This document shows, one piece after another, positions 6,784-33,569 of a DNA stretch of 64,000 nucleotides. Numbering within the stretch: position 1 is the first letter of the stretch; each line of letters opens with the position of its first letter. Made by a program: the position numbers and the translations under genes. Location: the NCBI GenBank assembly GCA_011390345.1, contig JAABSP010000006.1:35108-99107 (forward strand), written 5' to 3'. The stretch is from Desulfobacteraceae bacterium. GTDB taxonomy: Bacteria > Desulfobacterota > Desulfobacteria > Desulfobacterales > JAABSP01. The notes beneath the pieces are model-generated. The model was not told the origin of the DNA. It was given only the letters and a program-made list of their open reading frames with translations, and made no database searches.

Positions 6784-7169
6784 TTTTTGATATTTTTTAT
6801 GGAATTCTCATGGTGATCGGTGCGCTCTTCATGTCTCTTGCGGGTTTAGGCATCATCCGGATGCCGGATCTCTATACCCGGATCTCCGCTGCCACAAAGG
6901 CATCCACACTGGGGGCCGCCTTTCTGCTGCTGTCGGTGGCCGTTAAGTTTCAGGAGCCGGCCATTGTTGTCCGGATGATAGCGGTGATCTTCTTCATCGC
7001 GCTTACCGCGCCCATCTCCGCGCATATCATCGGACGCACCGCCTATCTCACCGGCATTCCCCTGTGGGAGAAATCGAAGATCGACGAGTTCAAAGAGGCG
7101 GCCCAAACGGTGATGGAGGATGAGGAGAGGGCCGCTGAGGAGGGGGAGAACCCGATGGGCTGTCTATAG
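6780..7169 (+). CDS. mrpG: Mrp antiporter subunit G
   Basis: MnhG-type motif IIRMPDLYTRISAATKASTLGA. It is the last gene of the operon. Confidence 0.8.
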   Translation: MIFDIFYGILMVIGALFMSLAGLGIIRMPDLYTRISAATKASTLGAAFLLLSVAVKFQEPAIVVRMIAVIFFIALTAPISAHIIGRTAYLTGIPLWEKSKIDEFKEAAQTVMEDEERAAEEGENPMGCL

Positions 7170-24797: not shown

Positions 24798-25313
24798 ATG
24801 GACAAAAATTTTCTGGAGATGTGGGGGAATTATCTGATCAATCTGGCCAAGGGGCAGCGCCAGATGGAGGACATATCCCGGTGGATGGGGAAAGAACCGA
24901 CCGGCTTTTCGGAATTCTCTTCGGCCCTACGAAAATTCTACGGCCTCGATTCCCCCAAAGCAGATGCCGCAAAGCAGAAGGCCGATGTTTCCGAAGCCTG
25001 GCGCTCCTCCATTGACACCTTCTGGAAATCCTATCGGGAGTATCTCGACACCATCGGAATGATCCCCAAGGAGGAACACCTGAAGCTGGTCCGGAAGTAT
25101 GAGGACCTGAAGAAGAAGGTTGCGGCCTGCGAGGAGACTATCGAGCATCTAAGGATGCTGCTGAATGAGAAGGGCGGAAGCCAGGGGGAGGTGGTGGAGA
25201 AGTTCCAGTATCTGGTGCAGGACCAGAGCGAGCGGTTTCAGGAGCTGATGCGGGATATGGGGCAGTTTTATCAACAGACAGCCCTGATTCCGGAGAATGA
25301 TGAGAAGAAGTAG
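24798..25313 (+). CDS. Coiled-coil protein, PhaE C-terminal-like (possible PHA granule-associated)
   Basis: The segment IPKEEHLKLVRKYEDLKKKVAACEETIEHL parallels VPTLKEMDALYKDIYVLKKRVNDLSKKVEE at the C-terminus of the phaE product in this window. AGAGAGG precedes the ATG. Confidence 0.4.
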   Translation: MDKNFLEMWGNYLINLAKGQRQMEDISRWMGKEPTGFSEFSSALRKFYGLDSPKADAAKQKADVSEAWRSSIDTFWKSYREYLDTIGMIPKEEHLKLVRKYEDLKKKVAACEETIEHLRMLLNEKGGSQGEVVEKFQYLVQDQSERFQELMRDMGQFYQQTALIPENDEKK

Positions 25314-25341
25314 AGAACTTGGATGGCAGGAGGCCGGAAAC

Positions 25342-25830
25342 ATGGGAGAAAATGAAGGGAAAACGGACCTTTTTTGCAACTATCGGGCATTTGGGCGGAA
25401 GGATTGCATCGCAGTTCCCATCCGCTATTCGCGCTACGACAGTCCCGGAGTCTTTGTCGATGGAATGATGTTCAATCGGGGAACGGGCGGCATCTATTTC
25501 GAGACCGACAAGCTGCTGCCTCCGGGTGCGGATATCTATATCCGTGTTATCAATGGCGCGGCCCAAGTCCACGGGAACGAGGATCTCTATCGCGGCCATG
25601 TGATGTGGTGCAGAAAGATCGTTCGGGAGGATGCCTATATCTACGGTGTGGGGGTCCGGTTCCTGATCAATACCTGCTCCGAATGCGAGGATACCATTCC
25701 TTATGACCAGATCAACCGAACCCTGGATTATCTCCACCTCTGCCCGGACTGCACCAGAAAGCTCGACAGCCTCCAGGATGGGCATCTTAGAAGATCCATC
25801 GAAGAGTATCTTCAGGGGAATATTATATAA
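25342..25830 (+). CDS. PilZ-like domain protein with C-terminal CxxC...CxxC zinc ribbon
   Basis: I moved the start to the ATG at 25342, after AGGAGG. It has RxxxR (RAFGR) and a degenerate D/NxSxxG (NRGTGG), then CSEC...CPDC. Confidence 0.45.
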   Translation: MGENEGKTDLFCNYRAFGRKDCIAVPIRYSRYDSPGVFVDGMMFNRGTGGIYFETDKLLPPGADIYIRVINGAAQVHGNEDLYRGHVMWCRKIVREDAYIYGVGVRFLINTCSECEDTIPYDQINRTLDYLHLCPDCTRKLDSLQDGHLRRSIEEYLQGNII

Positions 25831-25928: not shown

Positions 25929-26357
25929 CTACGCCTTCGGCTTTTTGGGCGGGCTGACCAGGGCCTCTCCGTCGATGACCACGGTTCCGTCCTGATTTGT
26001 GCAGGTGGTCCGGAGCCGGACCCTTTTCTTCTCCTCCAGCAGCTCTGCCACCTCGACCACAGCCGTTACGGTATCCCCTATCCGGACCGGCGCGAGAAAA
26101 CTCAGACTCTGCTTCATATAGATGCTTCCCGGGCCCGGAAGCTGCATCCCGATCACGGCCGAGATAAAGCCGGCAGAGAGCATCCCGTGGGCGATCCGCC
26201 CCTTGAAGAAGGTCTCTTTGGCGTAGGCTTCATCGATATGTGCGGGGTTGAGATCTCCGCTGACGCCTGCAAAGAGGTAGATATCCGTCTCCGTCACTGT
26301 CTTTGAAAACTGTGCGGTATCGCCCACCTTGAGCTGATCGAAAGTTTTTCCCGCCAT
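25929..26357 (-). CDS. phaJ: (R)-specific enoyl-CoA hydratase (MaoC/PhaJ hot-dog)
   Basis: Hydratase-2 motif FAGVSGDLNPAHIDEAYA, 142 aa, located in the PHA locus. Confidence 0.85.
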   Translation of the reverse strand: MAGKTFDQLKVGDTAQFSKTVTETDIYLFAGVSGDLNPAHIDEAYAKETFFKGRIAHGMLSAGFISAVIGMQLPGPGSIYMKQSLSFLAPVRIGDTVTAVVEVAELLEEKKRVRLRTTCTNQDGTVVIDGEALVSPPKKPKA

Positions 26358-26464: not shown

Positions 26465-28009
26465 TTAGAACCAGATCCGATGGCTCCAGATATCCTGTTC
26501 CAGATCCTGCTTGTCCTGCTGAAGGGTCAGGTACATGGAAGCGTTCTGGATGGCCAGCCCCCCCTGATGGGCAAGGGCCACGGCAAGCATGATCTCGTCC
26601 TCGGTAAATACCCGTTTGGTCTCGCTGTAGAGGCGCATAACCCCCACCACATCCTCCCGGGCATGGATGGGAACCGTAAGAATCGCGCCAATTCCCTCTT
26701 TCCGCTTCTCCTCACGGTACTGCACCCCCTCGTCCGTTTCGATGTCTCGGACCACGTTGGGCCGCATGTTCAGGGCACGGTTGATGCTCTCCTCCGCGGA
26801 GATGGGCCCCTTGTCCAGATACTCATCGCTCAACCCGTAGCTTGCAACCAGTTCCAGGGTCTTCTTCTCCTCGTCCAGCAGCCGGATGGAGACCGCCTTT
26901 ACCCCGAAGACCTCCGCGATGTCGGCCGACAGGATATGGAGGATCTTCTTGATGTCCAAAGTCTCGTTCATGCTCACCGCGAAGTCGTGGAAGATCTCCG
27001 TATTCATCCGGATGCGGTTGAAGAGGCGCTCCCGCTCGATGGCAATTCCCCCCTGGTGCGCGAGCCCTTTGATCATCTTGACGAGATGATCCGGAAAGCT
27101 GCGTTTGACGCCGCTGTAGAGACGCAGTTCTCCGATCACATTCTCCCGGGACTCGACGGGAACGCAGAGGACCGAGACGATCCCTTCCCGCTGGGATTCC
27201 TGCGGGTACTGAAGGCGGGGATCGTTGCTCACATCCTCGATGATCACCGTTTCGGCTCGAAGTACCTGGGCCACCACCTCGCTCTTCTCCGCAGAGACGG
27301 AACCTTTGTTGATGAAGGCTTCGCTCAGACCGTAGCTGGCGACCATATCCATCATTTTCGTCTCGGGATTGTACAGGCGGATCGAGACCCCTTTCATGCC
27401 GAATGCCTCGCCGATTTCGGCCGACAGGATATGGAAGACCTTCTTCATATCCCGGCTGGTATTGATGTTGTAGGCGAGGTTGAAGAAGAGATCCGCGTTC
27501 TTGTTGATCCGCTCGAAAAGGCGGGCATGCTGGATGGCTGCGCCCCCCTGTTCTGCCAGGGCCGTCAGAAATTCGATATCGTCTTCGGAAAAATCCCTCG
27601 GCTCTGCGGTATAGAGGGAGAGGACCCCGATGCTCTTGCTTTCCACCATCACCGGAACCGCAAGAATGGATGCGATACCTTCGGCCCGTTTGGCCCCGTG
27701 ATGGTCGAGACGGGGATCTTCTGTGGCATCTTTGAATGCAAGATAGCCGCCGGCCGCCATCAGTTCCTTGATCGCCTCCTCGATCCTCATCGGCTCCGCG
27801 TGCAGGTAATTTTCCGACAGCCCTTTTTGAGCCACCGGCACGGATATCCCCTGTTCCTCATCGGCCATGAAAAGACATGCTGCCTTTGCGCCCATTGTCG
27901 ATATCGCGCTCTCGACAATCAGATCGAGCAGTTCCTCCTTCCGGAGGGTGGTCCCAAAGGCCTTGCTGATTCTGCAAAAGGTCTTGAAGTAGTCGGTGTT
28001 CTTGGTCAT
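26465..28009 (-). CDS. Stand-alone triple-GAF domain protein
   Basis: Three internally similar units of about 165 aa. Each ends in LY(T/S)...R.F(S/T/P).D.I..L..LA.QGG.AI. I see no kinase, cyclase or HTH output domain. Confidence 0.8.
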   Translation of the reverse strand: MTKNTDYFKTFCRISKAFGTTLRKEELLDLIVESAISTMGAKAACLFMADEEQGISVPVAQKGLSENYLHAEPMRIEEAIKELMAAGGYLAFKDATEDPRLDHHGAKRAEGIASILAVPVMVESKSIGVLSLYTAEPRDFSEDDIEFLTALAEQGGAAIQHARLFERINKNADLFFNLAYNINTSRDMKKVFHILSAEIGEAFGMKGVSIRLYNPETKMMDMVASYGLSEAFINKGSVSAEKSEVVAQVLRAETVIIEDVSNDPRLQYPQESQREGIVSVLCVPVESRENVIGELRLYSGVKRSFPDHLVKMIKGLAHQGGIAIERERLFNRIRMNTEIFHDFAVSMNETLDIKKILHILSADIAEVFGVKAVSIRLLDEEKKTLELVASYGLSDEYLDKGPISAEESINRALNMRPNVVRDIETDEGVQYREEKRKEGIGAILTVPIHAREDVVGVMRLYSETKRVFTEDEIMLAVALAHQGGLAIQNASMYLTLQQDKQDLEQDIWSHRIWF

Positions 28010-28046: not shown

Positions 28047-29438
28047 TTATGATTTTTTGGCGCTCTTCTTTCCGGTTTTGCTGCGCGATGTCGATTTCGG
28101 GGCCGAAGATGAAGCTACCTGACGCTTCGGTTTCTTGGATTTCGCAGCCGCCCTGGTCTCTGTCTCCTCTGTCTCCTCTGTCTCCTTTGTCTCTTTGGCG
28201 GCAGGTTCCGCGGTCTTTTTCGAAGCGGTACTCTTCTTTGCCGCTTTTTTCGGTTCGCTCTTCTTCGTCTCTTCGGGGGCCGCGTCCGGTTCAGTTGCGG
28301 TCTCTGCAGGCTTCTTCTCCGCTTTTGCCTTCTCCTTTGCCCGCGGCTGTTCCGCTTTCTGTTCTTGGTCCCGCTCCTTCAGCCAGGAGAGGATCTTGGG
28401 CCCGAAGATCTTCTGACATTTGGAGCTGACATAGATCCCGATGTGACCCGTATCGAGACACATGTCTTCGGTATCTTTGCTGCCCACCTGCTTGGTAAGC
28501 TTGTCGCATGCCTCCGGCGGAACCAGGTGGTCGAACTTGCCGTAGATGTTCAACAGCGGCATGGTGAGCTTCTTCAGATCGACCCGCTTCCCGTCCAGCT
28601 CCAGCCTGCTCTGGATCAGCCGGTTCTCCCGATAACAGTCGGTGATGAACTGGCGGAAGGTCTCACCCGGGACATCAGGGCTGTCGAAGATCCATTTCTC
28701 CATCCGGATGAAGTTCTCCACAAAACCCTTGTTGTCCATGTTTTCGAAAAAGCTGATGTACTTGTCGATGATCAGCCGGGCCGGATTGAGCAGCAGAAAG
28801 CCCAGGTTCATCAGATCGCCGGGCATGTTCTTATAGCAGTCGGCCATCTGATCCGCGTTGGTGTTGCGCATCCAGATGTGCAGCAGCCCCTTGTCGGTGT
28901 CGAAGTTGGTGGGGGTGACGGTGGTGACGAGGTTTTTGATCTTTTCGGGGTGGAGTGCGGAATACATCACGCAGAAGGCCCCGCCCATGCAGATCCCCAT
29001 CAGATGGATCTGTTCCAGTTCGTGGCGCTTCCGGATGAAGTCGATCACATTGTCCATGTAGACGTTCACATGATCGTCGATGGTCAGGTACTGGTCTTTC
29101 CGGGTGGGATAGCCCCAGTCGATCATGTAGACCTCGAGGCCGTTGTCCAGAAAGGTCTGGACAACGCTTCTCCCCTCCTGGAGATCGAGCATGGTCTCCC
29201 GGTTGATCAGCGCGTAGACCACCAGCAGAGGCCGTTTGTATTTCACCTCCTTGGGCATGTAGTGCTTCAGCTTGATCCGGTCCTCCTCATAGACCACCTC
29301 GTAGGGGGTAGGGGAGATTTCCGTATCCAGTGGGCCGAGCAGAATCTCCGAGGCACGTTTGGCTTTGACATGGCTCTGTTCGGTGCTCTCGGCCATCTTT
29401 TTCATGATGAGATCGACGGCGATTTTCGGCTGCGTCAT
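28047..29438 (-). CDS. phaC: Class III PHA synthase catalytic subunit PhaC with Lys/Ala/Glu/Pro-rich C-terminal extension
   Basis: Lipase box GICMGG. Class III-like sequence (MIDWGYPTRKD, LLNIYGKFDHLVPP, DTGHIGIYVS). I moved the start to MTQPK (29438) after GGAGAAAG. About 108 extra C-terminal residues are low-complexity. Confidence 0.9.
   Translation of the reverse strand: MTQPKIAVDLIMKKMAESTEQSHVKAKRASEILLGPLDTEISPTPYEVVYEEDRIKLKHYMPKEVKYKRPLLVVYALINRETMLDLQEGRSVVQTFLDNGLEVYMIDWGYPTRKDQYLTIDDHVNVYMDNVIDFIRKRHELEQIHLMGICMGGAFCVMYSALHPEKIKNLVTTVTPTNFDTDKGLLHIWMRNTNADQMADCYKNMPGDLMNLGFLLLNPARLIIDKYISFFENMDNKGFVENFIRMEKWIFDSPDVPGETFRQFITDCYRENRLIQSRLELDGKRVDLKKLTMPLLNIYGKFDHLVPPEACDKLTKQVGSKDTEDMCLDTGHIGIYVSSKCQKIFGPKILSWLKERDQEQKAEQPRAKEKAKAEKKPAETATEPDAAPEETKKSEPKKAAKKSTASKKTAEPAAKETKETEETEETETRAAAKSKKPKRQVASSSAPKSTSRSKTGKKSAKKS
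28155..28197. repeat. 9-bp tandem repeat (CTCTGTCTC-like, about 4 units) inside the phaC tail
   Basis: Read directly from the sequence. It encodes ...KETKETEETEETE... Confidence 0.8.
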
Positions 29439-29463
29439 GGGACTTTCTCCTTGAAAAAATCGT

Positions 29464-30378
29464 TTAGGTCTTCTCTTCGACCTTTTTGGAGAGATCATTG
29501 ACCCTCTTCTTAAGGACATAGATATCTTTGTAGAGCGCATCCATCTCCTTCAAGGTCGGAACCGGAAACTCCTGGAGCAGATCGGCAAGAAAATCCTCCT
29601 TGGCCTGCTTGTACTGGGCCAGCGCATCAATGGTCTGGGTCATCACCTCGGTGTACTCCGGGGACTTGAGCAGTGTCATGTAATGCCCCTCAAGGATCTT
29701 TATCCACATGTTGTAGTAGGCCTTGAAATCGTCGTGGAACTCCCCCTTCTCGGCCAGGGTCTCCATCTGCTCCTGCATCACCGAAAAGGATTTCTCCATG
29801 GGGATGTAGAACATATAGAGGAATTCGTTGATCGCGGTCTGGTAGAGATTGAACTTGTCGAGAAAGCGGTTGTACCGATCCTGATACAACCGATTGAGGC
29901 CAAGTGAGGGGACATTGAAATACTTCTGAATCTCGGTTTGATACATCTCCCGGAATTTTTTGAAGAGATCCCGGTCGATGTCGTCGAAGCTGTACGGAGG
30001 GACTTGTTCGCCGGTCCGCTGGATTCGCTCGGTCATCTTCTGCTGGACCATGAGATAGTTGTCCATCATCTGCTGGCCCAGGTTCATCATGAACTGGGGC
30101 AGGGTCTCGAGGCTCTTGAACGATGCGTTGACGTTTTCCGGTTCGGCCAGCGCGGCCATCATGGCGGTCAAGATCCGCTGGCTCGATTCAAAGGATCTGT
30201 TGAACCGGTTCTTGGTCTCGCCTGTTTTCCCCTCCTTCCTGTCCTCATCATTACCGGAAGAAGGGCCGGCGGCCGGCGGCCAGGAGGGCATCCCCTCCCA
30301 GAAGCTCATGGTGGTTTTCATCCAATCGGCGAACAGGGCTTCGGGGCTCGTCTTGCTGTTTTGACTCTGATCTCCCAT
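29464..30378 (-). CDS. phaE: Class III PHA synthase subunit PhaE
   Basis: 304 aa immediately upstream of phaC (25-nt gap). It has a Trp-rich N-terminus and the conserved central block NVPSLGLNRLYQDRYNRF typical of PhaE. Confidence 0.8.
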   Translation of the reverse strand: MGDQSQNSKTSPEALFADWMKTTMSFWEGMPSWPPAAGPSSGNDEDRKEGKTGETKNRFNRSFESSQRILTAMMAALAEPENVNASFKSLETLPQFMMNLGQQMMDNYLMVQQKMTERIQRTGEQVPPYSFDDIDRDLFKKFREMYQTEIQKYFNVPSLGLNRLYQDRYNRFLDKFNLYQTAINEFLYMFYIPMEKSFSVMQEQMETLAEKGEFHDDFKAYYNMWIKILEGHYMTLLKSPEYTEVMTQTIDALAQYKQAKEDFLADLLQEFPVPTLKEMDALYKDIYVLKKRVNDLSKKVEEKT

Positions 30379-30463: not shown

Positions 30464-30907
30464 TCAAGGAGATTTTTTCGTCTCTACTAGCTTTTTTCTC
30501 CCCCCTTTTTCCATGAAAAAGCGCTCCGCGATGCTGGAAAGATCGATGCCCAGTTCAAGACAGATGCGGAACTGCTCATCCAGACTCTTTTTATAGTTGA
30601 GATAGGAGTGGATGGTCTGTTCCAGATAATTTTCGAAAAATTCGTTCAAGGTATCCTCGCCGAACCTGATCAGCAGGTGGAGAAGGGAGACCGGCAGAAT
30701 GCTGTGCTGCCGTTTGGCCCGCTCCATGACGATCTGCGTCAGGATGAAGGCCGTTACATCCTTGTCTGTCTTTGCGTCTGTGACCAAGACCTGCCGCCCC
30801 TCCCGGATCATCTCCTCCACATCTTTCAAGGTGACGTAGCTGCTGGTTTCGGTATTGTACAATCTGCGGTTCGGATATTTTTTTATGGTGATGCGCTCGG
30901 TGTTCAT
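30464..30907 (-). CDS. phaR: PHA synthesis repressor PhaR
   Basis: N-terminal PHB_acc_N motif ITIKKYPNRRLYNTETSSYVTLKDVEEMI. I moved the start to MNTER (30907). Confidence 0.85.
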   Translation of the reverse strand: MNTERITIKKYPNRRLYNTETSSYVTLKDVEEMIREGRQVLVTDAKTDKDVTAFILTQIVMERAKRQHSILPVSLLHLLIRFGEDTLNEFFENYLEQTIHSYLNYKKSLDEQFRICLELGIDLSSIAERFFMEKGGRKKLVETKKSP

Positions 30908-31035
30908 CGCTATTCTCCTGATATTGACACATTGCAACATGAAGCCCCGCCCTGGGTGAAAGCTCTTCTATTTATCCCATCTATTTATATAGATGTCAAA
31001 GGATTTTGCCATTTCCCGGGGCGATGAAAAAAACA

Positions 31036-31970: not shown

Positions 31971-33569
31971 ATGAACGCCGCATACGAAGCAAACCGAGGG
32001 TTATACGAGAGCATGATGGAGAGCTTCTCCGAGAGGTATCTCGCCCCGTTCCGGATTGCCGTCAATCAGTTCGCTGCCACCCAGAACAGTATTGTCGGGC
32101 TGAGCAAATATGCCAATGAATATCTGGTTCCGTATATGCTCGCCACCAACTATTTTGCCGAGGCTGAAAAACAGCGGTTTTCCGAGTCGGACCCGATGGA
32201 GCTTCTCCAGTCCTATGTGGATCTGCTGGAGTTCAACTGGAATATCACCGCAAAGAACCTGATTGCCAGCATCCGGGTGCTAAACGACTACAGCAACAAA
32301 GAGCTGCAGAATGCCCTGGAGGCCATTCTCAATACCCTGTTTCTCAACGAGGGGGAGGATCTGGAAGGCTTTGTGGAGCGACAGTCGAAGATGCTTGAGC
32401 AGGTGACGATGGTCTATCCCAAGGCCATCTCCGACATCGCGCCCGAGTTCGGGTTCCATTTCGAGCAGGGGGGCAATCCGCTGGTTGCGGAGTCGGATCG
32501 ATTCCTGGTCTACCAGGTGCTTCCCACGGACAAGAGCGTTACGGTCCGAAAGGATGCAAAGCCGATTCTGATCCTGCCCCCCTATGTGCTGGGGGCCAAT
32601 ATCCTGGCCTTTTTGCCCGGGGAGAACCGGAGTTATACCCACTGTTTCGCGAATCAGGGGGTTCCCACCTATATCCGGGTGCTGAAGCCCATCGACGAGA
32701 CCCCGGCCCTGCAGCAGATGACCCTTGAAGAGGATGCCCTGGACACAAAGGATTTCTGCGGCAAGATCATGGAACTCCATGGCAAGCCCGTGACTCTGAA
32801 CGGCTACTGCCAGGGCGGTTTCGTCGCGATCTGCAACTATCTCTCCGGTGAGCTGGACGGAGTGGTGGATGCCCTTCTCACCTGTGTTTCGCCCATGGAC
32901 GGCACTCGGAGCAAAGGGCTTTCCGGCTTTCTAAAGGGGCTGCCCCAGCGTTTCAACCATCTCGATTACGGGACCAAGACCCTGGAGAACGGCAACAAGG
33001 TCGCGGACGGAAAGCTGATGGGCTGGGTCTACAAGATCAAGAGCATTGAGAGCGAGGCCCCCCTGGTGGCCTTCTACCGGGACATGATGATGCTCAAGCC
33101 CCGGAACGGAAAAGAGGCCAAGATAAGCAAGACGGCTGCGGCCCTGAACTACTGGCTGCAGAACGAGAGGATGGATCTTCCCCTTACCATCACCAAGATG
33201 AGCTTTGAATCCTACAATATCCCCATCACCGATGACGGGACTCTGCCCATAACCCTCTTCGGCCGGAAGCTCAACTTCCATCGGATCGCGGAGAAGCAGA
33301 TCCCCTGGCTCATCTGCTACGGCGAGCGGGACGACCTTGTGGAGAAGGAGACTGCCCTTGCGCCTCTGGACTTCATCGATGTGGAGATCGCGCCCTTTCC
33401 CAAGGGGCATGTGGCCATGGCCACCTCCTGGTCCGATCCGAGATCGGAATATGCGCTCCACACCCGTTTCGGAGAGAACAAGCAGTACCGGGGGCCGGTG
33501 CGGTATCACCTGGACCTGGATCAGGCGCTTTCCGAAAAAACGTCGACAGAAGCAACGGACCAGCAGTAA
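31971..33569 (+). CDS. Second PhaC-like PHA synthase (532 aa alpha/beta hydrolase)
   Basis: Lipase box GYCQGG. It also has PILILPPYVLGANILAF (compare PhaC PxxxVPPxINKxYIxDL), candidate catalytic Asp (YGERDDLV) and His (PKGHVAM). AAGGAGA RBS. Confidence 0.7.
   Translation: MNAAYEANRGLYESMMESFSERYLAPFRIAVNQFAATQNSIVGLSKYANEYLVPYMLATNYFAEAEKQRFSESDPMELLQSYVDLLEFNWNITAKNLIASIRVLNDYSNKELQNALEAILNTLFLNEGEDLEGFVERQSKMLEQVTMVYPKAISDIAPEFGFHFEQGGNPLVAESDRFLVYQVLPTDKSVTVRKDAKPILILPPYVLGANILAFLPGENRSYTHCFANQGVPTYIRVLKPIDETPALQQMTLEEDALDTKDFCGKIMELHGKPVTLNGYCQGGFVAICNYLSGELDGVVDALLTCVSPMDGTRSKGLSGFLKGLPQRFNHLDYGTKTLENGNKVADGKLMGWVYKIKSIESEAPLVAFYRDMMMLKPRNGKEAKISKTAAALNYWLQNERMDLPLTITKMSFESYNIPITDDGTLPITLFGRKLNFHRIAEKQIPWLICYGERDDLVEKETALAPLDFIDVEIAPFPKGHVAMATSWSDPRSEYALHTRFGENKQYRGPVRYHLDLDQALSEKTSTEATDQQ

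Follow-up and report, generated by a model that had tools for sequence, protein, structure and literature searches.

A class III PHA synthase with a C-terminal tail

The 64-kb window analysed here (64,000 nucleotides of a Desulfobacteraceae bacterium, GenBank contig JAABSP010000006.1, positions 35,108 to 99,107) encodes on its minus strand PhaC, the catalytic subunit of a class III polyhydroxyalkanoate (PHA) synthase. In this bacterium and in nearly all of the orthologs compared, the enzyme continues beyond its catalytic core into a tail, which in the window protein is lysine-rich and predicted to be disordered. The parts of the gene concerned are the following.

28047 to 29438, minus strand: phaC coding sequence, 463 aa plus stop, class III PHA synthase catalytic subunit with C-terminal tail (open reading frame (ORF), ribosome-binding site, ortholog alignment, database copy P0001, TIGR01836)
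29446 to 29451, minus strand: Shine-Dalgarno sequence AGGAGA of phaC (read in the sequence)
28371 to 29438, minus strand: PhaC catalytic core, residues 1-356, alpha/beta hydrolase with Cys150-Asp303-His332 (TIGR01836, ortholog alignments, AlphaFold2 (AF2), PDB sequence matches)
28050 to 28370, minus strand: predicted disordered Lys/Ala/Glu/Ser/Thr/Pro-rich tail, residues 357-463, net charge +11, isoelectric point (pI) 9.8 (composition, AF2, ortholog tails)
28050 to 28154, minus strand: most basic tail segment, residues 429-463 (RAAAKSKKPKRQVASSSAPKSTSRSKTGKKSAKKS), net +13 over 35 residues (charge profile)
28158 to 28193, no strand assigned: 9-bp tandem repeat, four copies, coding strand GAGACAGAG, encoding E-T-E, an acidic block in the tail (Tandem Repeats Finder)

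The maximal open frame of phaC extends from 28047 to 29540. Within it the start codon is the ATG at 29438, with the Shine-Dalgarno sequence 8 nt upstream and the stop codon of phaE, the gene of the second synthase subunit, 25 nt before it. M1 of the resulting protein lines up with the N-termini of the orthologs, and the database protein P0001 is identical to it and likewise 463 aa long. The original prediction, made from the letters of the DNA, had described a complete class III PhaC followed by about 108 additional residues; its coordinates match, but 28047-28049 is the stop codon and the tail is 107 residues long.

The core matches the class III model TIGR01836 from residue 10 to residue 356, that is, profile positions 3-350 of 350, with 417.2 bits against a cut-off of 365.3. 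Because the profile is matched to its end, the synthase fold is, by this comparison, complete at ...SWLKER (residue 356, window position 28371), as predicted, and the tail lies beyond it. Cys150 (in the lipase box GICMGG), Asp303 and His332 are invariant among the 52-54 aligned orthologs; the best PDB sequence matches of the core are PHA synthases (9knj, 5hz2 and 5t6o), and an AF2 model run with a 52-sequence alignment is confident for the core and places its final helix at residues 339-357. Class I membership is not indicated by TIGR01838 (119.2 bits versus a cut-off of 622.65). Neither the helix-hairpin-helix (HhH) domain HHH_5 (PF14520), in a Pfam search, nor the phasin domain TIGR01837, in a profile search, was found in the protein. 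The gene product is a normal class III PhaC with its partner PhaE and an intact Cys-Asp-His triad, lengthened at the C-terminus by a polycationic tail predicted to be disordered.

The composition of the tail is K26 A20 E17 S12 T12 P8 R4 Q4 D2 V1 G1, which corresponds to 24% lysine and a single hydrophobic residue in 107; at the lysine frequency of the core, the probability of 26 or more lysines is 6e-7. Its pI of 9.8 compares with 6.2 for the core. AF2 renders it as coil without secondary structure (pLDDT 37-53), and it is predicted to be intrinsically disordered. The properties of a disordered polycationic tail, namely the absence of predicted structure, very low hydrophobicity and net positive charge, are all found in it. 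The charge is distributed in successive blocks of +2, -5, +6, -5 and +13, and the tail is a blocky polyampholyte rather than a uniformly basic chain. Residues 429-463 have a charge density at or above the median of ortholog tails (approximately +0.23 per residue), and these last 35 residues are the likeliest polyanion-binding part of the tail.

The 9-bp repeat noticed at the outset was recovered by Tandem Repeats Finder (9 bp x4.0, 96% matches, score 65). It encodes ETK-ETE-ETE-ETE, and the acidic block would be a recent slippage insertion. The closest relative, L001 (a metagenome-assembled genome (MAG), contig JAABSZ010000070.1, core 96% identical), has two 9-bp units fewer than the window, an 18-nt in-frame deletion. 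Other readings of this DNA were rejected, including a structured RNA under the repeat (Rfam gave no match in the window) and an opposite-strand gene (plus-strand ORFs opposite the tail mirror the low-complexity DNA). A six-frame scan of the whole window found a K-rich, hydrophobic-poor stretch of 40 residues only here, plus an out-of-frame reading of the same DNA; with no other K-rich segment from that scan, K-rich tails as a general habit of the proteome were rejected for the window.

Conservation and evolution of the tail

The ortholog set consisted of the 120 best database homologs (62-79% identical) and 79 species-representative genomic loci, representing 80 species. A tail of 16-115 aa extends beyond the same ...WLKER core end in 118 of the 120 database homologs, and one of at least 14 aa is present in 78 of the 79 loci. 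Overall, the tail is in frame in 196 of 199 orthologs, including the finished isolate genomes of Desulfonema magnum (+12) and Desulfosarcina alkanivorans (+20). Two of the possible refutations named in the original prediction were an extension created by a frameshift or sequencing error and a tail absent in all close homologs, and the proposed alignment with class III PhaC sequences removes both, given that the frame is common to these close homologs and to finished genomes. A frameshift artefact in the window was rejected; the one frameshift belongs to L001. At its positions 7069-7079, an 11-nt insertion (CAGGACAGAAT) at the core-tail junction shifts the tail to an atypical Arg-rich frame and fuses PhaC to the GAF protein encoded downstream (annotated as P0273, 988 aa). 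This insertion probably reflects either a mistake in sequencing or assembly or a recent slip towards a pseudogene.

The 137 non-redundant tails have a median length of 47 aa (range across orthologs 14-115 aa) and consist of K 22%, A 15%, S 10%, T 9%, P 7%, R 7% and E 6.5%; 131 of them are net positive. They open with a short acidic E-G-D/E, followed by about +0.25 charge per residue. They cannot be aligned with one another (mean column identity 15%) and change through repeat expansion. The K/(K+R) ratio of the tails declines with GC content (rho -0.33, p 0.004), while their net charge per residue (median +0.23) does not follow it. Between the window and L001, the ratio of non-synonymous to synonymous substitution rates (dN/dS) is 0.80 for the tail (5 synonymous, 14 non-synonymous) versus 0.07 for the core; the tail sequence thus drifts almost neutrally, with presence and charge density maintained. 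Selection appears to act on the presence, disorder and positive charge density of the tail and not on its sequence.

Outside this clade, a broad set of 121 class III PhaC representatives with a complete C-terminus (50%-identity clusters) was compared. Fewer than 15 residues lie beyond the core in 94 of these (78%), which indicates that the tail is a derived trait, retained by a clade labelled Desulfobacterales and some Syntrophales in the record titles. Basic tails (at least 15 aa, net charge at least +5) occur in 12 of the 121 representatives.

In several sub-lineages the tails have a conserved end, which reads ...(S/A)LMQKIAEAI in L047, L063, L038, L067 and L057, ...SEQQQAG in L004, L021, P0023, P0030 and P0052, and ...KTMAKIGALVMAAAK (...KIGALVMAAAK) in P0045, P0051, P0056, P0061 and P0069. 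These end motifs suggest an added partner-binding or amphipathic element that is missing in the window protein.

Relation to histone H1-like tails

The tail had been described as histone-H1-like. This description holds for its composition and fails for family membership. The H1-like/Hc2 models PF07382, NF038052 and NF038053 gave no match to the tail at E<=10 in Pfam and E<=1 in NCBIfam, no PhaF or PhaM model was matched, PDB sequences gave no match, and among 5.8 billion database proteins 1188 candidates shared words with the tail and none reached E<=0.001. AAKP, PAKKA and S/TPKK are absent from the window tail, and PKKA occurs once, within the single PKKAAKK. By sequence, the tail resembles an H1-type tail in composition and is no member of the H1/Hc2, PhaF or PhaM families.

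Among 40 diverse ortholog tails, a few have weak matches to H1-like DNA-binding models (NF038053 with a best E of 2e-5, NF038052 and PF07382), and these models were the only families matched by more than one tail, apart from two matches to the Rv3852 family. Relative to within-tail shuffles, [ST]P[KR][KR] (25 observed versus 7.3 expected) and KK[AST][AST] (94 versus 39) are enriched in the ortholog tails, as are PAKK and TPKK, counts that residual kinship among the tails may inflate. The enriched motifs are typical of DNA-binding basic tails. AAKP is not enriched (4 observed versus 2.1 expected), and PAKKA is present in just 3 of the 137 ortholog tails.

Granule tethers and other extended synthases

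PhaM and PhaF, through histone-like C-termini, and PhaH, through an HhH module, hold the PHA granule at one end and bind DNA non-specifically at the other, and spread granules along the nucleoid (PMC13052382). For attachment of PhaM to the nucleoid, four lysines in its PAKKA motifs are enough (PMC9049629). In Pseudomonas aeruginosa, polyphosphate (polyP) granules are positioned by AlgP, a relative of PhaF in its histone-like, DNA-binding C-terminal domain, and the tail of AlgP acts via DNA binding (PMC13052382). The analogy with PhaM and PhaF drawn in the original prediction is therefore a reasonable one. Compared by composition, the window tail is like the Lys/Ala/Pro-rich, histone-like C-terminus with which PhaM of Ralstonia eutropha (Cupriavidus necator) binds DNA non-specifically; PhaM is complexed with the synthase at the earliest granule stage and activates PhaC1. 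Unlike PhaM, which is a separate protein acting on a class I PhaC1, the window tail is a covalent part of a class III PhaC, and it has neither PAKKA motifs nor detectable homology. Similarly, PhaF of Pseudomonas putida is a granule-surface protein with a disordered basic C-terminal tail that binds DNA non-specifically and segregates granules; PhaF, however, combines a phasin helix at its N-terminus with a leucine zipper and regular AAKP repeats, whereas the window tail is irregular, lacks AAKP and is carried by an enzyme.

The closest conceptual precedent is the class I PhaC2 of Cobetia and Halomonas, in which the synthase itself bears a basic disordered C-terminal extension of approximately 380 aa, rich in Lys/Arg, with a pI of 10.3 (PMC8686332). 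Its authors speculated that the extension is a nucleoid anchor replacing PhaM; the case was made in silico only, and its H1/HC2 matches came from a relaxed CDD search (PMC8686332). That protein differs from the window protein in being a class I enzyme of Gammaproteobacteria with a far longer tail, whereas the window has a class III PhaC with PhaE, and the two tails are of independent origin.

Another DNA-binding module is also fused directly to PhaC, namely HhH in haloarchaeal-type enzymes, in line with the idea that a tether may sit on the synthase itself. A C-terminal HhH of unknown function is reported on Haloferax mediterranei PhaC (PMC12028471), and HhH on class III PhaC also appears in a domain survey (bioRxiv 10.1101/693432). 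In the haloarchaeal class III PhaC, the C-terminus is extended, as in the window protein, there by a disordered linker and the non-specific DNA-binding HhH module with which the PhaH phasin of Caulobacter tethers granules to the nucleoid. The haloarchaeal module is folded (PF14520) and stands behind an acidic linker, in contrast to the polycationic, disordered window tail, which has no HHH_5 match. HHH_5 scored above its cut-off at the C-terminus of the class III PhaCs P0132, P0148, P0155 and P0158, and the representatives with a C-terminal HhH also include P0131 and P0145. The acidic composition that is usual in haloarchaea is missing from P0131 and P0132, and HhH fusion may not be limited to haloarchaea, contrary to the 2019 survey. 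A further representative, P0187, is a PhaC fused to a cyclic-nucleotide-binding domain.

Granule tethers thus have two known types of DNA-binding module, and each is found both on separate adaptors and in fusion with PHA enzymes. A literature search for lysine-rich or histone-like tails of class III PhaC, or for a nucleoid-linked C-terminal extension, returned only the Cobetia class I paper. In the searchable literature we came upon no account of a bacterial class III PhaC with a basic tail, although the idea of a synthase-borne anchor had already been floated for Cobetia PhaC2 and haloarchaeal HhH. The domain survey missed the basic tails because they match no Pfam model, and domain-based classifications of PHA synthases miss a conserved appendage for the same reason.

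Proposed role of the tail

PhaC remains attached to the polyester that it is making and is located at the surface of the granule, so that each granule, while still nascent, would display many copies of the tail. They would bind it electrostatically and at many points to a cellular polyanion, with the nucleoid the most probable one and the strongly basic last 35 residues (+13) the likely contact. The synthase alone would do the job of the adaptors PhaM, PhaF and PhaH, and its tail would seed granules on the nucleoid, space them and hand them to both daughter cells. From the anatomy of the tail, its predicted disorder, its pattern of conservation and the parallels in other lineages, we infer a ligand, DNA, and a cellular role. 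The independent fusions point in the same direction, namely HhH on class III PhaCs, the PhaC2 tail of Cobetia/Halomonas and the basic tails of a second hydrolase encoded near phaC (described below). On these analogies, we see an even chance that the PhaC tail tethers the granule to a polyanion, most likely nucleoid DNA, directly and as PhaM, PhaF and PhaH do via adaptors. The broader proposal, that the class III synthase of Desulfobacterales and Syntrophales self-tethers, with the tail nucleating and anchoring granules on the nucleoid or on a polyanion condensate without an adaptor of the PhaM/PhaF/PhaH type, is put forward as a tentative and somewhat doubtful one.

Several observations weigh against a nucleoid tether. 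No H1-like model matches the window tail, AAKP, PAKKA and SPKK are missing from it, and it is among the least basic of the tails (+0.10 per residue versus a median of +0.23) with two acidic blocks. The tail has been lost in three orthologs (P0026, P0107 and L043), and Desulfamplus magnetovallimortis (L054, 7069-7413, NZ_LT828542.1) has an acidic tail of 114 aa with a net charge of -7 and AKEVEAV-type repeats; positive charge is thus not obligatory. The tail dN/dS is near 1, a value that is based on only 19 substitutions and also fits weak constraint. The motif enrichment is subject to the kinship noted above. Polycationic disordered regions also bind polyP, RNA and acidic lipids, and binding of DNA is not separable by sequence from binding of polyP, RNA or membrane, or from a purely physical role.

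If the synthase does carry its own anchor, it would be the minimal form of a granule-positioning system, and the principle would hold in anaerobic sulfate reducers. To our knowledge, granule positioning and inheritance are known for only three aerobic model bacteria, each with a separate adaptor protein. Together with the HhH PhaCs, Cobetia PhaC2 and the tailed hydrolase, self-tethering would imply that chromosome attachment of PHA enzymes evolved repeatedly by direct fusion, and the nucleoid-scaffold model of granule formation would extend to anaerobes and archaea. Because the tail is lineage-wide (at least 80 species) and lies on a single polypeptide, the idea is readily testable by truncation. 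The tail may also help to control granule number and size in engineered PHA producers, and to interpret similar unannotated tails on other enzymes.

Alternative explanations

The tail may have no specific ligand and act as a charged disordered brush that keeps the aggregation-prone synthase soluble and prevents granules from coalescing, a phasin-like colloidal role, or as a spacer. Such a role would accommodate the conservation of composition, disorder and charge only, the variation in length from 14 to 115 aa, the dN/dS of about 0.8 and the evolution through repeat expansion; the acidic L054 tail is tolerated by a brush and not by polyanion binding, and overexpressed PhaC is reported to be unstable and prone to aggregation (PMC12028471). 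However, a brush could be of either sign, and 131 of the 137 tails are net positive, while solubility tags are commonly acidic. Contact with nucleic acid is indicated instead by the excess of S/TPKK- and PAKK-type motifs and by the HhH fusions found in parallel in other lineages, and we regard the brush as an unlikely explanation, though one to be taken seriously.

The ligand may alternatively be polyP granules or RNA in place of DNA, and the tail would then couple PHA to polyP granules or nucleate granules in a polyanion condensate. The charge evidence is equal to that for DNA, nothing in the sequence specifies DNA, and the example of AlgP, with its PhaF-related histone-like C-terminal domain, comes from polyP granules (PMC13052382). 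The AlgP tail nevertheless works through DNA binding (PMC13052382), and the polyP genes ppk and CHAD were not seen among the flanking genes scanned. We consider this explanation quite improbable, as every characterized PHA-granule tether that we know of (PhaM, PhaF and PhaH) is a DNA binder.

The tail may instead be a flexible linker, offering a short end motif to a partner protein, or a polybasic signal directing the synthase to acidic membrane lipids, and support comes from the conserved end motifs that follow the basic stretch in some sub-lineages (LMQKIAEAI in L047, L063, L038 and L067, EQQQAG in L004, P0023, P0030 and P0052, and KIGALVMAAAK in the P0045 group). No conserved terminal motif, however, is seen in the window tail, in that of L001 or in most of the remaining tails, there is no amphipathic or hydrophobic element in the window tail, and PHA granules are reported to lack phospholipids in vivo (PMC4879537). 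This possibility is very unlikely.

An artefact (frameshift or sequencing error) or a functionless, neutrally drifting read-through is scarcely credible and is largely refuted by the ortholog evidence. In its favour, L001 does have a frame-shifting 11-nt insertion with a PhaC-GAF fusion, stop codons are few in all frames of the purine-rich DNA, and the tail dN/dS is 0.8. Against it, the window frame yields the K-rich composition common to 196 of 199 orthologs, where the L001 frame is Arg-rich; and without a function, the tail would not have stayed present, poor in hydrophobic residues and positively charged over cores down to 62% identity, with a charge independent of GC content.

Gene neighbourhood

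phaC lies in a pha cluster on the minus strand, and the genes around it include the following.

29464 to 30378, minus strand: phaE, second class III synthase subunit, directly upstream of phaC (PF09712, 93.9 bits versus a cut-off of 25.7)
30464 to 30940, minus strand: phaR, PHA granule-associated DNA-binding regulator (PF07879 PHB_acc_N, 95.9 bits)
26465 to 28009, minus strand: triple-GAF protein, 37 nt downstream of phaC (GAF_2, three stretches, 180 bits)
25929 to 26357, minus strand: MaoC-type (R)-enoyl-CoA hydratase, PhaJ-like (PF01575, 90.9 bits)
31971 to 33569, plus strand: second, distantly PhaC-like alpha/beta hydrolase, 532 aa, with a GYCQGG box

The arrangement is widely shared: among 80 related loci, phaE immediately precedes phaC in 77, the GAF gene follows directly downstream in at least 61, and the MaoC/PhaJ-like hydratase is present in 44. 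Residues 244-298 of PhaE have a sub-threshold match to the phasin model TIGR01837 (19.8 bits versus a cut-off of 94.7); if this match is real, the phasin-like PhaE and the H1-like PhaC tail would jointly mimic the two modules of PhaF. The triple-GAF gene is probably co-transcribed with phaC. Its product consists of GAF domains only, without an output domain. It is conserved in the pha operon of Desulfobacterales, where it may sense or regulate PHA metabolism.

Two small plus-strand genes accompany this group. A 171-aa protein (24798-25313) belongs to no Pfam or NCBIfam family and has a homolog near phaC in 53 of 80 loci; single-sequence AF2 gives it five long helices (pLDDT 76), and structure searches returned generic helical bundles only, with no significant PDB fold match. 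It is a candidate for a novel phasin. The adjacent 177-aa ORF (25297-25830) overlaps the end of this gene by 17 nt, is conserved beside phaJ in many loci and matches TIGR02266 weakly (22 bits versus a cut-off of 68.7).

A second tailed hydrolase

In 51 of 80 loci the second hydrolase is encoded no more than 6 kb from phaC. An hhalign comparison, at a low probability of 19.6%, lines up its Cys, Asp and His with the triad of PhaC. The window copy matched no Pfam family at E<=1e-4, no PDB sequence relative was found, and the homolog in L029 has only a weak TIGR01836 match (25.6 bits). The hydrolase could be a PHA depolymerase of unclassified type or else another synthase. Copies were noted in L029 (2636-4468), L061 (3089-4921), L004, L006, L019, L025, L044, L046 and L076. 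The tail of the window copy is short and non-basic. In approximately 14 species the hydrolase carries K/A/P-rich basic C-terminal tails of up to 100 aa (for example ...KPAKKTAAARKTTPRKATGAAKKPAKAAPAAKKKPKPRAK...), which were gained independently.

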